Virus record (IMG/VR): IMGVR_UViG_2681813316_000023
Coordinates: 1 to 4,853 of that record
Source: a virus
Lineage: Duplodnaviria; Heunggongvirae; Uroviricota; Caudoviricetes
Direction: 5' to 3' (one strand)
DNA length: 4,853 bases
Position 1 is the stretch's first letter. The number at the start of each line of letters is the position of its first letter. Under the pieces are notes generated by a model, which was given only the letters and a program-made list of their open reading frames with translations, did no database searches and had not been told where the DNA came from. The position numbers were made by a program, and so were the translations under genes. Of this stretch, positions 1 through 4,853 are shown piece by piece.

Positions 1-1
1 T

Positions 2-121
2 ATAAAAGACAGTCTGACACTGGGACTGAATGCGCTGACGCTGACGGATGTTACAAAAAATGCAGCGTATGGCGTTGAGATAGAAAGTCTGATGCTGGAG
101 ATAAATGCACCGGCAGCATAA
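2..121 (+). CDS. 3' end of an upstream gene (partial, last 39 codons, ends ...LEINAPAA); product unknown, possibly the late-region gene preceding the lysis cassette
   Basis: Only frame 2 is open from the window edge to TAA at 119-121 (followed by a second TAA at 122-124); the other + frames hit stops within ~75 nt. Too short to assign a family. Confidence 0.3.
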   Translation: MKDSLTLGLNALTLTDVTKNAAYGVEIESLMLEINAPAA

Positions 122-158
122 TAAAAAAAGCCAGCGCCCACTCTGAAGGACGCTGGCT
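121..158 (-). terminator. Intrinsic-terminator-like hairpin oriented for the minus strand (stem 129-136/151-158, A7 tract on the + strand = U tract on the minus transcript)
   Basis: agccagcg (129-136) pairs perfectly with cgctggct (151-158), with two further C:G pairs possible inside the loop; the T/U run lies only on the minus-strand side. Confidence 0.5.
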
Positions 159-333
159 AAAACGGGTAGATGTACTTCACATGATACTTATATTTGGCAG
201 TACATTTTCTGACAGACAGTGACGGATGTTGTCAAGATATTGTGTCATTTATAACCTGAATCAGGGGTTGGTCGGAATGTTATCTGGCATTTTTAGCAGA
301 GCCTGAATGCCATAATCACGGCTCCCGGAGTTG

Positions 334-368
334 GCCGTCAGTGGGTGACACTGGCGGCTTTTTGTTTT
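334..368 (+). terminator. tR'-like rho-independent terminator in the late leader immediately upstream of the holin
   Basis: 10-bp stem gccgtcagtg (334-343) / cactggcggc (349-358) with one G:U, 5-nt loop ggtga, followed by TTTTTGTTTT (359-368). Confidence 0.6.
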
Positions 369-413
369 CCTTTACTTTCATTTTCTGTCGGCGGTGACGG
401 AGACATACATCAG

Positions 414-620
414 ATGGAAAAAATCACAACGGGTGTGTCATACACCACGTCAGCGGTGGGGACGGGATACTGGTTACTGCAGCTGCTGGACAAAGTCTCT
501 CCGTCCCAGTGGGTGGCAATAGGTGTACTGGGGAGTCTGCTGTTTGGCCTGCTGACGTATCTGACTAACCTGTATTTCAAAATCAGGGAGGACCGCCGTA
601 AGACGGCGCGGGGAGACTAA
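414..620 (+). CDS. S: Class II holin (pinholin, phage 21 S21 / E. coli essD family), 68 aa
   Basis: Translation [68 protein letters not shown] closely matches my recollection of S21(68)/EssD: two TMDs, the first Gly/Ala/Ser-rich, and a charged C-terminus ...[13 protein letters not shown]. Start placed at ATG 414, not the track's GTG 345, because GTG 345 lies inside the terminator hairpin and homologues begin at M-(D/E)-K. GGAG at 399-402. Confidence 0.85.
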
Positions 621-624
621 AGCG

Positions 625-1614
625 ATGAAGAAAAAATACGAACTGGTTGTTAAAGAGATAAATAATTACCCGGATAAGATTGCTGTTACTGTGGCACTTG
701 AAATTGGCGGGCATCCGTCGTTGTTGTTGCCACATGTGGCGATTAGTCTTGACCGTACTGAAGGTGCCACGCTGGAGTTCTACGAAGCTGAGGCGAAAAA
801 ACAGGCGAAGCAGTTTTTCATGGATATTGTTGCCGGGTTATGCGAAGGGGATGAACCGTCACCGGAAAAGCGCCCCGTAATTTTAGATGCGCAGGATGTA
901 TTGATAACCTACAAAGGAAAGCTACCGGGAAGAATTACTTGTTCTCTGAAGATGCCGCCGTCAACACTGCGGTCAGAAAAAGATGATGTTGAATCGCGTA
1001 TTGAAAAACTGGAGTGCTATATCGCTGAATTGAAAAAAAGCACCCCAACAAAAAATGAGGTGCTTGCAGCAGACGAAATGAAAGAAGCTATTCCTGATCG
1101 CGCGGCGAATCTAAGCTGCGCTTCATGGTTGAAAGAGCATCTTCAGCAGCCTGAAAAAAAACGCCGCGATGAGCAGTTTGCTGCGTTTTACGATTATTGC
1201 CGGAAAGTGATGAGCAGAAATCTCGCAGAGTGTTTCAGTATTCATAATGATAATTTCAGTGACCTGGAATGGGAGTGTAACCGGCCATCCTTTGTTGTAT
1301 CCGGTGATGCTGGGAAAATAACCATCTCAGAAAATGGAAAAGTAACACCGCCATCGCACCAGCATAGTGAGGAGCTCATTGAATTTGCCATTGATTACCT
1401 GAAGAACAATAAAAAGCAGGGGCTGATGAAGTGCATTGGTCGTTGCATGGGATATCTGCAGATAGCTGCTGAGATTGAAGCGCTGGCCAGTGGTGCGGAC
1501 AAGGATGCAGTTGTGCGGAAGGCTCTTCTTCGTGATTTTGATAATCCGCCCTTTAAAAAAGTGCCGGCTTACTGGTTTCATCCAGGACTGACTTATCTTA
1601 AAGGACGTATATAA
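625..1614 (+). CDS. Hypothetical 329-aa soluble protein inserted between holin and endolysin (moron/cargo gene); family not recognised
   Basis: Uninterrupted 329-codon ORF co-oriented with the lysis genes; ATG 625 lies 4 nt after the holin stop, with GGGAGA at 611-616. No signal peptide or TMD evident. Charged coiled-coil-like middle (about residues 110-180) and a Cys-containing C-terminal half. Confidence 0.75.
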   Translation: MKKKYELVVKEINNYPDKIAVTVALEIGGHPSLLLPHVAISLDRTEGATLEFYEAEAKKQAKQFFMDIVAGLCEGDEPSPEKRPVILDAQDVLITYKGKLPGRITCSLKMPPSTLRSEKDDVESRIEKLECYIAELKKSTPTKNEVLAADEMKEAIPDRAANLSCASWLKEHLQQPEKKRRDEQFAAFYDYCRKVMSRNLAECFSIHNDNFSDLEWECNRPSFVVSGDAGKITISENGKVTPPSHQHSEELIEFAIDYLKNNKKQGLMKCIGRCMGYLQIAAEIEALASGADKDAVVRKALLRDFDNPPFKKVPAYWFHPGLTYLKGRI

Positions 1615-1656
1615 GCTGGCTCGTTATCTGTTGCCGATAAATCCTGATAAATATCC

Positions 1657-2190
1657 ATGAACACCAAAATCAAATACGGCCTGTCGGCTGCCGTTCTGGC
1701 GCTGATTGCCGCTGGTGCGCCTGCGCCTGACATTCTCGACCAGTTTCTGGATGAAAAGGAAGGTAACCACACCACGGCATACCGTGATGGTGCGGGGATC
1801 TGGACCATCTGCCGTGGTGCCATCATGGTGGATGGTAAACCTGTTGTTCCAGGCATGAAGTTGTCGACGGCAAAATGCGCTCAGGTTAACGCCATTGAGC
1901 GTAATAAGGCGCTGGCATGGGTGGAGAAAAACATCAAAGTGCCATTGACCGAACCACAGAAAGCGGGGATTGCGTCATTCTGTCCGTACAACATTGGCCC
2001 CGGTAAGTGTTTCCCGTCGACGTTTTATAAACGAATTAATGCAGGCGATCGCAGGGGGGCGTGTGAGGCGATTCGCTGGTGGATTAAGGACGGTGGCAGA
2101 GACTGCCGTATTCGCTCAAACAACTGTTACGGTCAGGTATCCCGTCGCGACCAGGAGAGTGCGCTGGCGTGCTGGGGAATTGACAGATAA
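1657..2190 (+). CDS. R: SAR endolysin, T4-lysozyme-like muramidase (GH24), phage 21 R21 / P1 Lyz family, 177 aa
   Basis: N-terminal weakly hydrophobic Gly/Ala-rich signal-anchor-release segment YGLSAAVLALIAAGAPAP. Catalytic triad in the canonical context E35-G-N...R-D44-GAG-IW-T50. Downstream conserved blocks ...KINAGD..GACEAIRWW... match GH24 SAR endolysins as I recall them. Confidence 0.9.
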   Translation: MNTKIKYGLSAAVLALIAAGAPAPDILDQFLDEKEGNHTTAYRDGAGIWTICRGAIMVDGKPVVPGMKLSTAKCAQVNAIERNKALAWVEKNIKVPLTEPQKAGIASFCPYNIGPGKCFPSTFYKRINAGDRRGACEAIRWWIKDGGRDCRIRSNNCYGQVSRRDQESALACWGIDR

Positions 2191-2280
2191 GCAGAATATT
2201 TTGCTGAAAAATGCGGTTTGCTCACACGGACGGATAACACGAAATCCTGCGAACTGACAAAAACTAAGAGAATAAAAGTA

Positions 2281-2320
2281 AAAACCCCGTTTGTTGGCTG
2301 CAAGCGGGGTTTTGTGTTTC
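2281..2320. terminator. Strong hairpin / bidirectional intrinsic terminator between the endolysin and the Rz module
   Basis: aaaaccccgtttg (2281-2293) pairs with caagcggggtttt (2301-2313) around a 7-nt loop; A run before and T-rich tract (ttttgtgtttc) after. Confidence 0.6.
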
Positions 2321-2349
2321 CTGACTCCGGAAAAGTCAAAGGAGAAAGT

Positions 2350-2487
2350 GTGTTTGATTTTAGCAAACTGATTCGGGAGATTCGAGTGATGGCTGAAAAA
2401 TTATCCACCTGGAAGTTCATTCTTATCTGGCTGGTGTTTGTGATTATGGCCTCCGGTTATTTCATCGGTCAGATACGCTGGTGGTGA
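2350..2487 (+). CDS. Small single-TMD membrane peptide (45 aa from GTG 2350, or 32 aa from ATG 2389), translationally coupled to Rz; function unknown
   Basis: AAAGGAG (2338-2344) lies 5 nt upstream of in-frame GTG 2350; a second in-frame start ATG 2389 follows GGGAGA (2375-2380). Product ...MAEKLSTWKFILIWLVFVIMASGYFIGQIRWW has one ~21-residue hydrophobic helix. TGA 2485-2487 is 1 nt from the Rz ATG 2489. Confidence 0.35.
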   Translation: MFDFSKLIREIRVMAEKLSTWKFILIWLVFVIMASGYFIGQIRWW

Positions 2488-2488
2488 A

Positions 2489-2926
2489 ATGAACCGCGTA
2501 CTGTGCGTGGTCATCATTGCCCTGCTGGTGGCCTGTGGTGCGCTTAGTCTGGGGCTGAATCATTACCGTGATAACGCCATAACCTACAAAGAGCAGCGCG
2601 ATAAAGCCACATCCACAATCGCTGATATGCAGAAGCGTCAACGTGACGTAGCAGAACTCGATGCCAGATATACAAAGGAGCTTGCTGATGCTAACGCGAC
2701 TATCGAAAGCCTCCGTGCTGATGTTTCTGCTGGGCGTAAGCGCCTGCAAGTCGCCGCTACCTGTGCAAAGTCAACGACCGGAGCCAGCGGCATGGGCAAT
2801 GGAGAAAGCCCAAGACTTACAGCAGATGCTGAACTCAATTATTACCGTCTCCGAAGTGGAATCGACAAGATAACCGCGCAGGTCAACTACCTGCAGGAGT
2901 ACATCAGGACGCAGTGCTTAAAATAA
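2489..2926 (+). CDS. Rz: Rz i-spanin (inner-membrane spanin subunit), 145 aa
   Basis: N-terminal TMD followed by NHYRDNAITYKEQRDKA...MQKRQRDVAELDARYTKELADA...AGRKRLQV, near-collinear with lambda Rz as I recall it. Contains the embedded +1-frame Rz1. Confidence 0.9.
   Translation: MNRVLCVVIIALLVACGALSLGLNHYRDNAITYKEQRDKATSTIADMQKRQRDVAELDARYTKELADANATIESLRADVSAGRKRLQVAATCAKSTTGASGMGNGESPRLTADAELNYYRLRSGIDKITAQVNYLQEYIRTQCLK
2688..2873 (+). CDS. Rz1: Rz1 o-spanin (outer-membrane lipoprotein spanin subunit), 61 aa, embedded in the +1 frame of Rz
   Basis: AAAGGAG (2674-2680) sits 7 nt before ATG 2688. Signal peptide MLTRLSKASVLMFLLGVSA with lipobox L-G-V-S-A-C, then a Pro-rich mature region CKSPLPVQSQRPEPAAW...LNSIITVSE resembling lambda Rz1. 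ATG 2661 from the ORF track was not used (no SD, over-long signal peptide). Confidence 0.8.
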   Translation: MLTRLSKASVLMFLLGVSACKSPLPVQSQRPEPAAWAMEKAQDLQQMLNSIITVSEVESTR

Positions 2927-2963
2927 TTTTAATTTCACTGAAATTTAATACGTGACTTTCAGG

Positions 2964-2992
2964 AAAATGCCTCGCAGATGCGGGGCATTTTT
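2964..2992 (+). terminator. Rho-independent terminator closing the lysis operon
   Basis: Stem tgcctcgc (2968-2975) / gcggggca (2980-2987) with one G:U, 4-nt loop agat, flanked by AAAA (2964-2967) and TTTTT (2988-2992). Confidence 0.7.
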
Positions 2993-3285
2993 GTACAGGT
3001 ATTTCACCGCGCACCGCAGTGCACTCAACCACGTCGAACCAAACCCTTTGGAATGAGCCTTTGAGTAGTCAGTTAGTGCTGGTGAGCCTTGACGGGCTGA
3101 TCTCCTATGCAGCAAAGGTTCATCTCAAAGTAAGGCGAACGCTATGACAAACCAAGATTCTATAGACCTATCTGATCTTCGTGGAATGGTCAGTTTTCCA
3201 GACAAAAGGTAATCACCATAGTCGTATGGCTATGAATCTTGTTGCTGCAGATAAGCATTTTGTGATTGAAGTGGTCAAATCTCTC

Positions 3286-3342
3286 AAATGCAGTAAAATG
3301 CAGTGCGCTATAATTCAATAACGGAGGGAGTAAGGAGAAGTC
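3286..3342 (+). promoter_or_regulatory. Putative promoter/operator and RBS of the island nuclease-like gene: tandem 9-mer AAATGCAGT x2, consensus -10 TATAAT, SD AAGGAG
   Basis: AAATGCAGT at 3286-3294 and 3296-3304 (10-bp register); TATAAT at 3309-3314; GGAGGG at 3323-3328 and AAGGAG at 3332-3337, 5 nt before ATG 3343. No clean TTGACA-like -35 was found. Confidence 0.35.
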
Positions 3343-3963
3343 ATGAAAGATCAAGATGTTAGGTTCGCGGTGCATCATAAGCTTTTGAAAGAATCGCATT
3401 TAGATCCAGACTGCCTTGTGGTCGATGAATTTTCCATATCCCTTGGCGCCAGTAGAGCAGACATTGCTGTAATAAATGGTGTTATACACGGGTACGAGCT
3501 CAAAAGTGAATATGACTCTTTGGAGCGTTTGCCTCTTCAAATCAAGCATTATTCTTCTGTAATGGACAAGGTTACTCTTGTCGTAGCTGAGAAACATCTT
3601 GAGGGAGCATTAAAGTTAATCCCAGGTTGGTGGGGCGTTAAAACGGTTTCTGTTGGGCCAAAAGGCGCCATTCTTATAAAGCACATGCGTGGAGAAAAGC
3701 TTAATCGAAACCATGACACATTGATGCTCGCTCAATTGCTTTGGAAAGATGAATGTATCGACGTACTTGAACGATGGGGCTATTCCAAAGGAATCAAAAG
3801 CAAGCCCCGATTTGAGTTATGGAATATTATTGCGGAAAATATTCCAATAGCGAATCTCAGGCTTGAAGTCAGAACAGCCTTAAAGAAACGCGTAGGCTGG
3901 AAAGTTAAGGCTTGGCAGGCTGAGTCTGCGCCAACCAATAAAGCTGTCTCACGACTAACGTAA
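3343..3963 (+). CDS. PD-(D/E)xK (restriction-endonuclease-fold, Hjc/Mrr-like) nuclease-domain protein, 206 aa, on an AT-rich island
   Basis: Long ORF in AT-rich DNA with a strong SD. Motif E29 (VVDEF) ... D40 (RADIAVING) ... E52-L-K54 (VIHGYELKS) is the arrangement of PD-(D/E)xK nucleases. The C-terminal ~110 residues are basic and Trp-rich with no motif I recognise. Confidence 0.75.
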   Translation: MKDQDVRFAVHHKLLKESHLDPDCLVVDEFSISLGASRADIAVINGVIHGYELKSEYDSLERLPLQIKHYSSVMDKVTLVVAEKHLEGALKLIPGWWGVKTVSVGPKGAILIKHMRGEKLNRNHDTLMLAQLLWKDECIDVLERWGYSKGIKSKPRFELWNIIAENIPIANLRLEVRTALKKRVGWKVKAWQAESAPTNKAVSRLT

Positions 3964-4774
3964 TATGGTGCGTATGTGCAACTTTACGCCATTCTTTAGA
4001 GCCGCCAGATTTGTTAGCGCCTAATGATCTTTGGTAAATGTAATCATCCCCCCAACTAAATTTGGAACCAAAGACTTGATACTCTGGCGAACTAACAAGG
4101 GTAGTACATAAGTTTTTAGTTTGGCCCCATCCATTTCCTTTAACTGCGGTACCTTTTACAAAGATCCATGAGGTATCGTTCGAATATCTCACTGAGACAT
4201 ACTGAGACATGAAGCGTGGGTCTACGCTCGTAATGGTAGAGCTAGCGGTGGGATAATCACTAAAACTTGGCGTTCTTCCATTGCTAAAATTCTGTACTAC
4301 GTACATCCAAAGATCGTATTCATGGCGCGGAATATGATGAACTTGATGTTGCGGTATCCCTGCCTGTGATGCTGGGTATGCGGTTGAAGATAAAATCAAG
4401 TTTCTCCACGGAGCTTGGCCTGATAATGTGTTGACCATGCTTAATGCTTGTTGTTTTAAACTATCAGTTGCGTTTTGAATATCTCCAAAATCAATGATTA
4501 CATCAATTAAACTAGGATGAATATTTAAGTGGTTAACCAGACTTGTGAATTGGTGCCATGTCTGGGGGGTGATAGATATAGCGAGCCCATTGATTAAGTT
4601 GCGTTGAACAGCATGTATATAGTTTGTTGAATATGCGGGAGAAACAACAGGGATAATTTCCTTACCATTTACTCTAGCATCTTGGATACACATATCTAGA
4701 GGATGATGGCGGCTCGAACCATGTTTATCTAAATATTTAACATCCAGCAAAACAGGACGATTGATCCTACCCAC
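3905..4774 (-). CDS. Hypothetical 289-aa protein on the AT-rich island, convergent with and 3'-overlapping the nuclease-like gene; function unknown
   Basis: 870-nt uninterrupted minus-strand ORF in AT-rich sequence, where long ORFs are unlikely by chance. First start is GTG at 4774 with no convincing SD (next ATG is codon 27), so the start is uncertain. No TMD or signal peptide; no motif I can assign. Confidence 0.65.
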   Translation of the reverse strand: MGRINRPVLLDVKYLDKHGSSRHHPLDMCIQDARVNGKEIIPVVSPAYSTNYIHAVQRNLINGLAISITPQTWHQFTSLVNHLNIHPSLIDVIIDFGDIQNATDSLKQQALSMVNTLSGQAPWRNLILSSTAYPASQAGIPQHQVHHIPRHEYDLWMYVVQNFSNGRTPSFSDYPTASSTITSVDPRFMSQYVSVRYSNDTSWIFVKGTAVKGNGWGQTKNLCTTLVSSPEYQVFGSKFSWGDDYIYQRSLGANKSGGSKEWRKVAHTHHITLVVRQLYWLAQTQPAKP

Positions 4775-4853
4775 GTAATATGGACACAGGCCTAAGCGAG
4801 GTTCTGGTTTTCAAATTGTTCCGGACTGAGGCCGCCACACCAACTGTGCCGCC

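Follow-up and report, generated by a model that had tools for sequence, protein, structure and literature searches.

The 4,853-bp stretch of DNA analysed here (IMG/VR virus record IMGVR_UViG_2681813316_000023, positions 1 to 4,853; hereafter the window) carries on its minus strand a 289-codon open reading frame (ORF) with a GTG start at positions 3905..4774. With a probability of roughly 85%, this ORF is the 3' four-fifths of a 355-amino acid beta gene that was cut by the insertion sequence IS3, the gene belongs to a defence-related pair lacking gop, and the pair is inactive here. An earlier reading of the DNA without database searches (the sequence-only reading) had described the ORF as a gene of unknown function with an uncertain start, convergent with a nuclease-like partner. 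The coordinates and the GTG codon were correct according to the six-frame ORF list of the window, and the convergent arrangement was recovered in related genomes. The start, and with it the status of the gene, has to be read differently.

The ORF product matched the Pfam family PF14350 (Beta_protein) with an E-value of 4.1e-43 and 148.6 bits, above the gathering cut-off of 27. Because of this match the ORF was taken as a real coding sequence and a chance ORF was excluded. The match spans only positions 61-342 of the 342 profile positions, which is less than the full-length domain. In PADLOC, the 289-residue fragment matched the PD-Lambda-2_C models PDLC03983 (E-value 1.4e-25) and PDLC03984 (1.3e-24) and, more weakly, the model 'beta'. 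Protein alignment showed residues 5-289 of the ORF to be identical to residues 71-355 of WP_000077907.1, an intact 355-amino acid protein annotated in RefSeq as 'beta family protein'. Its gene (1068 bp) lies at 6806..7873 of the E. coli locus L001 (NZ_CP024155). The intact allele covers positions 1-356 of PHROG 9159 and matched PDLC03984 (PD-Lambda-2_C) with an E-value of 4.4e-32 and 'beta' with 3.5e-10 over residues 3-338. The segment at 3905..4761 (minus strand), comprising codons 71-355 and the stop codon, was thus assigned as a beta gene remnant on the basis of identical protein residues, DNA homology to intact loci, and the PF14350 and PADLOC matches.

The family is large and uniform in length. 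A profile search of 1.84 billion representatives retrieved, at E ≤ 0.001, 3756 clusters at 50% identity, nearly all of them 350-370 amino acids long and matching from profile positions 1-5. Both the beta protein and its partner are entered in PHROGs as unknown function. The earlier statement that the protein has no assignable motif did not hold, given the assignments to PF14350, to PD-Lambda-2_C and beta in PADLOC, and to PHROG 9159. 'Unknown function' was likewise too pessimistic, as beta family proteins take part in anti-phage systems demonstrated by experiment (PMC9122126, PMC9519451).

The break in the gene coincides with the end of an IS3 element. When window positions 3100-4853 were compared by megablast with complete E. 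coli genomes, 100% identity was obtained for 3100-4763 only, a segment annotated in RefSeq as 'sce7726 family protein' and 'beta family protein'. Homology to intact E. coli beta loci ends at position 4763. The last ~90 bases matched more than 13,000 places in 3990 of the 5426 complete genomes, annotated as 'IS3-like element IS3 family transposase'. Positions 4762..4853 (minus strand) match the right end of IS3 at 99-100% identity and contain the terminal inverted repeat (TGATCCTACCCACGTAATATGGACACAGGCC on the plus strand) and the last transposase codons, with the transposase stop TAG at 4794-4792 on the minus strand. In the IS3 copy of locus L003, the match spans the 3' end of the transposase coding sequence and the end of the element. 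The terminus itself was defined by alignment of two independent copies: between the window and the L003 copy, identity starts at TGATCCTACCCACGTAATATGG, window position 4762, and the four-base flank CGAT preceding it is common to both by chance. Inverted-repeat detection with an 8-bp seed did not recover the IS3 ends in L003. The junction between IS3 and its target is ambiguous by 2 bp, as positions 4762-4763 fit both.

Judged from the sequence, the GTG start is an artefact of the IS3 insertion. The apparent start, GTG GGT AGG ATC (4763..4774, minus strand), consists of four codons of the IS3 terminal repeat, identified from the sequence and the alignments, and these codons therefore have no counterpart in the intact protein. 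Direct reading of the sequence bore out that no Shine-Dalgarno motif precedes the GTG at 4774-4772. An in-frame TGA lies upstream at 4813-4811, and the GTG would simply be the first start-type codon after this stop. The intact beta gene of L001 starts with ATG, six bases after AAGGAG. A fusion protein with the transposase was excluded because the transposase stop lies in another frame. The suspicion about the N-terminus in the sequence-only reading was well founded, whereas its view of a complete gene with an uncertain start was not, since the start is supplied by the IS3 terminal repeat. IS3 would have inserted at codon 70/71, displacing the first 70 codons, the ribosome-binding site and the promoter of beta. 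As the 285 retained codons show no amino acid change, the insertion is recent.

The window is the entire 4853-bp contig CYBQ01000077.1, in reverse orientation, of the draft assembly GCA_001284265.1, and for this reason it stops 92 bp inside the repeat. By megablast, the beta/IS3 junction of the window was absent from all 5426 complete E. coli genomes. The locus was found at a coverage of at least 80% in 126 of these genomes and was uninterrupted in all among the matches listed.

An alignment of 31 relatives revealed 38 invariant columns, and the invariant residues Y6, P8, E16, L20, P33, K51, and L57 fall in the lost N-terminal segment. The AlphaFold2 model of intact beta was confident (predicted local distance difference test, pLDDT, 91.9; predicted template modelling score 0.91), with alternating strands and helices forming a beta/alpha barrel of the TIM type that matches solved barrels. 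In this model, residues 1-70 contain the strands at 9-11 and 34-36 as well as several helices. Going by the model, the 289-amino acid product could not close the barrel. Since the barrel cannot close and the ribosome-binding site is lost, the remnant is very probably non-functional, and the beta gene in this strain is probably dead. Profiles of both the beta and the partner family, searched against the sequences of solved structures, gave chance-level matches only.

Decayed beta genes were also found elsewhere. The protein P0033 is a beta form of 272 amino acids, short at the N-terminus, and reflects independent decay in another lineage. At locus L057 (3001-4066), beta is frameshifted by 1 nt near residue 229 while the partner is intact, again an independent decay. 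A 289-amino acid homologue (P0011) was considered as the same form as the window ORF and rejected, as it is a C-terminal frameshift variant whose equal length is coincidental. A link between beta and the NCBIfam family sce7725 was likewise dropped: one of ten distant relatives (P0185) matched it with a sub-threshold E-value of 0.008 over the first 33 positions, which does not count as evidence. The family sce7725_fam takes its name from the gene adjoining sce7726 in Sorangium and might be a very distant beta-like partner.

The convergent partner gene, a 206-codon ORF on the plus strand at 3343..3963 in the six-frame list, is apparently intact. Its product matched NCBIfam NF033832 (sce7726; E-value 2.3e-54) and the PADLOC model 'cll' (4.3e-31), falls into Pfam PF26915 (Phage_P4_cII), and is 100% identical to the L001 copy, WP_000654790.1, a RefSeq 'sce7726 family protein'. 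Invariant residues include E29, D40, E52, and K54, which constitute a PD-(D/E)XK pattern. The AlphaFold2 model (pLDDT 89.5) has a PD-(D/E)XK nuclease-like core and a helical C-terminal domain. Its best match in the PDB was 3dnx (SPO1766), with an E-value of 6.2e-4, a probability of 1.00, 16% identity and TM-scores of 0.42/0.55. We take 3dnx to represent the MmcB-like DUF1052 nuclease-fold family. The partner shares with it the fold and the E...D...ExK motif, but shows no relation at the sequence level and carries the additional C-terminal helical domain. On the strength of its predicted core fold and motif, the partner belongs to the PD-(D/E)XK nuclease superfamily.

Most partner homologues have ~190 amino acids. 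The E. coli lineage has TGG in place of the usual stop codon TAG, which adds 16 residues, and residues 189-206 were modelled as disordered (pLDDT < 50). A weak sigma-70-like site (TGGTCA-16-TAAAAT, 9/12 consensus) at 3272..3299 on the plus strand, ~45 bp upstream of the partner ATG, is a candidate promoter only, because the number of such sites in the window does not exceed the shuffled expectation.

The beta remnant and the partner gene overlap at their 3' ends by 59 bp (3905..3963), as the sequence-only reading had correctly placed it and as is also annotated in RefSeq genomes. Within the overlap, the minus strand codes for beta residues 337-355 and the plus strand for the partner tail, roughly residues 188-206. 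As the 3' ends are convergent and overlapping, the transcripts necessarily run antisense into each other's gene; the earlier claim of mutually antisense ends is thus forced by the arrangement. An intrinsic terminator scan revealed no terminator-like site in or near the overlap in the window.

The two genes belong together well beyond E. coli. Wherever a locus in the genome and IMG/VR collections had sequence past the 3' end of beta, a convergent sce7726/cII-like gene followed (53/53). A metagenome relative with 31% identity, counted separately, showed the pair as well. Searched from the partner side, three distant homologues (Burkholderia, Acinetobacter, and a JGI metagenome) also adjoin beta. 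The pair occurs in Proteobacteria and in a metagenome-assembled genome (MAG) of Bacteroidetes. Because the identities of beta and partner fall together across lineages, the two genes are inherited as a unit. The proposed partnership with the nuclease-like gene, and the co-occurrence suggested as a check on it, were thereby corroborated in these 53 loci and in four further contexts. The sequence-only reading had also allowed that the ORF might be a fragment of a longer gene with no conserved pairing; a fragment it is, cut by IS3, whereas the pairing is kept.

The spacing of the two genes varies. Their 3' ends are 4 bp apart in Vibrio and overlap by 4 bp in Yersinia, by 11 bp in Klebsiella, Pantoea, Pectobacterium, Edwardsiella, and Cronobacter, by 23 bp in the 31%-identical metagenome relative, by 29 bp in the Bacteroidetes MAG, and by 41, 56, and 62 bp in the Acinetobacter, Burkholderia, and JGI metagenome homologues, respectively. 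The 59-bp overlap was found in E. coli, E. albertii, and one viral contig with 49% identity. In phage P4, beta and cII are convergent with a 27-bp gap containing an annotated terminator. What is conserved in the module is the tail-to-tail packing, mostly with an overlap, and not the exact 59 bp; in E. coli this length results from the partner stop TAG reading TGG. The idea that the 59-bp overlap is a one-off accident of E. coli was softened, as distant lineages overlap by 41-62 bp.

The pair is a two-gene, gop-less relative of two anti-phage systems, gop-beta-cII and PD-lambda-2. The P4 set consists of gop (133 amino acids), beta (355 amino acids), and the convergent cII (264 amino acids, a RefSeq sce7726 family protein). 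In tblastn searches, P4 beta matched the present beta with an E-value of 2e-5, and P4 cII matched the partner with 1.9e-16. The gop-beta-cII system confers protection from lambda and P1 (Rousset et al. 2022, PMC9122126), and the phage gene orf184 triggers cell death through it (Silas et al., bioRxiv 10.1101/2023.04.06.535777). According to Ghisotti 1990, as cited in PMC9122126, gop is toxic without beta, and beta suppresses this toxicity. Common to gop-beta-cII and the present pair are a beta protein of the same length (355 amino acids when intact), the convergent cII/sce7726 gene, the position next to cos of a mobile element (PMC9122126), and the matches of both proteins to the PADLOC models beta and cll. 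In contrast to P4, the pair lacks gop, the partner has 190-206 rather than 264 amino acids, and the genes overlap instead of being separated by the terminator-bearing gap. Moreover, the host is a lambdoid prophage and not a P4-like satellite, and beta is broken in the window.

In PD-lambda-2, which has been described as toxin-antitoxin-like (PMC9519451), defence depends on a beta-like third component, but the toxic component is neutralised without it (Vassallo et al. 2022, PMC9519451). The beta-like component, PD-lambda-2C, is the best PADLOC match of the beta protein here. The HigB-like and Xre-peptidase fusion partners of that system were absent here and from every related locus examined, and an sce7726 partner is not described for PD-lambda-2. 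Because the effector genes are absent, the pair belongs to neither named system, although beta is common to both and cII is shared with P4. The closest relatives are the pairs WP_000077907.1/WP_000654790.1 of E. coli lambdoid prophages, with identical beta residues 71-355, an identical partner and the same 59-bp overlap; compared with these, the window copy has lost codons 1-70 and the upstream region to IS3. Our literature search found no mechanistic paper on sce7726 or PF14350.

By analogy with these systems, the intact pair is most likely a compact anti-phage module carried by prophages. The partner, with its PD-(D/E)XK nuclease fold, is likely the effector, because its catalytic motif is invariant. 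The TIM barrel of beta would then be a required sensing, licensing or enzymatic component, as PD-lambda-2C is in its system, and the antisense mRNA ends may balance the expression of the two genes. With two barrel strands and conserved residues of beta lost, the module is most likely inactive in this strain.

Several observations weigh against this interpretation. PADLOC on all window ORFs and tblastn with P4 gop detected no gop, either in the window or in the intact relatives. In L001, no suitable ORF for it exists in the 412 bp upstream of beta, and in the window the corresponding region is replaced by IS3. With the toxic gop of the P4 system missing, the assignment of an effector is an analogy. 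Identity to the P4 proteins is low (~22% for beta and ~27% for cII), and the structure matches of the beta barrel are generic, at 5-12% identity, indicating no particular chemistry. The literature search found no paper on the two-gene form. As to the disruption itself, the far side of IS3 lies beyond the window, so that a larger rearrangement instead of a simple insertion may have taken place, and read-through from IS3 could still transcribe the beta remnant.

It was considered whether the 289-amino acid ORF might be a functional shorter isoform of beta, starting at the GTG or at an internal codon. The frame is open, the 285 retained residues are identical to the intact allele, and IS3 has the same orientation, so that read-through transcription might reach the ORF. 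This is nevertheless extremely improbable: the start codon lies inside the IS3 repeat and has no ribosome-binding site, the family uniformly measures ~355 amino acids with a conserved N-terminus, truncation removes two barrel strands, and no complete E. coli genome carries the junction, with the locus uninterrupted among the matches listed for the 126 genomes that have it. It was judged very improbable as well that the junction is an artefact of short-read assembly, with an intact gene present in the organism. Draft assemblies do break in high-copy repeats, and the contig end lies 92 bp within one. An intact gene, however, would have carried the contig on into unique beta sequence, whereas here the unique sequence is joined directly to the exact IS3 terminus (TGATCC...), sharing only 2 bp with it, as in a real insertion. 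Such a join in a graph assembly would presumably need spanning reads, and the same contig is recorded for two samples. Disruption of beta by IS3 is the preferred explanation of the ORF.

With regard to function, the tight linkage and overlap of the two genes would also suit a toxin-antitoxin addiction module that serves prophage maintenance and not defence, with the sce7726 nuclease as toxin and beta as antitoxin. The suppression of gop toxicity by P4 beta (Ghisotti 1990, as cited in PMC9122126) and the toxin-antitoxin-like character ascribed to PD-lambda-2 (PMC9519451) point the same way. Yet a toxin without its antitoxin should not be tolerated, and beta is disrupted here next to a putative toxin gene that is intact and identical to the wild type; the same holds for L057. 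A simple antitoxin role of beta is disfavoured because its loss is tolerated with the nuclease gene intact. Furthermore, a 355-amino acid TIM barrel with many invariant polar residues resembles an enzyme and not a labile antitoxin, and the beta-like protein of PD-lambda-2 is dispensable for neutralising the toxin (PMC9519451). Altogether, we regard an addiction module as unlikely. A reversal of roles, in which the beta barrel is the enzymatic effector, acting for instance on a nucleotide, cofactor or DNA, with the cII-like protein as a DNA-binding sensor or regulator, is possible but doubtful. It would account for the enzyme-type fold of beta and for the acidic, basic or histidine residues D77, H90, D157, R190, R216, D239, R253, R262, H335, and H336 among its 38 invariant columns. 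Some cII homologues are labelled 'regulatory protein' by the sources, and the insertion in beta might have been favoured by selection if the effector is costly. The complete and invariant PD-(D/E)XK motif of the partner argues instead that the partner itself is catalytic, as in the assignment of the partner as effector.

The pair is a mobile two-gene module of prophage accessory-gene (moron) sites and defence islands. Its related loci have no conserved third gene. The neighbours are lysis and terminase genes in E. coli, Klebsiella, Cronobacter, and Yersinia, an integrase in Vibrio, and type I restriction-modification genes in Pantoea and Edwardsiella. In the window, the module site is that between the lysis cassette and the cos/terminase region of a lambdoid prophage. 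In L001 the lambda cos sequence GGGCGGCGACCT (8095-8110) separates the beta gene from the small terminase gene, and the module therefore adjoins cos, like the P4 hotspot (PMC9122126). The small terminase gene of L001 is split by a different IS3-family element and its large terminase gene is frameshifted (8285-10146); this prophage is defective, with its beta/sce7726 pair intact. In the Yersinia loci L017 and L018 (4001-5628), the pair lies just downstream of a lysozyme gene and not after a complete lysis cassette, so the insertion site within prophages varies. Small ORFs beyond the Yersinia pair match Pfam DUF2570 and LysC and suggest further lysis functions.

A lambdoid lysis cassette (414-2926) precedes the pair in the window. 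It comprises a class II holin (414-620), a 329-amino acid DUF1327 protein (625-1614), a lysozyme (1657-2190), a conserved 45-amino acid ORF of PHROG 6632 (2350-2487), and an Rz-type lysis protein (2489-2926). At the position of the DUF1327 gene, L001 carries a 116-amino acid YdfR-family gene and is ~80% identical to the window within an otherwise near-identical locus, so the segment is mosaic. An out-of-frame ORF within the Rz gene (2661-2873, plus strand) looks like an Rz1 outer-membrane spanin, to go by its translation, which has a lipoprotein-type signal (..LMFLLGVSAC..) and a proline-rich tail. The window starts and ends in repeated prophage or IS sequence; over bases 2-127 it shares 93% identity with the 3' end of a gene for a SASA-family carbohydrate esterase that occurs in lambdoid prophages.

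The immediate consequence is a correction of annotation: the ORF at 3905..4774 is to be recorded as a beta family pseudogene disrupted by IS3 and not as a 289-amino acid gene with a GTG start. The beta family was already annotated; it is large and takes part in at least two shown anti-phage systems. Beta is also very widespread in a plain pairing with a cII-like nuclease-fold protein, in which neither gop nor the HigB/Xre partners take part, and such a pair offers a minimal system for dissecting the roles of the two proteins. We tentatively propose, at somewhat less than even odds, that the intact pair works as an anti-phage system on its own and represents the core from which both gop-beta-cII and PD-lambda-2 descend. 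In this view, the TIM barrel would perform an enzymatic step in sensing or signalling, and the antisense overlap would set the mRNA ratio. If this is true, the mechanism of the beta family would become directly testable.

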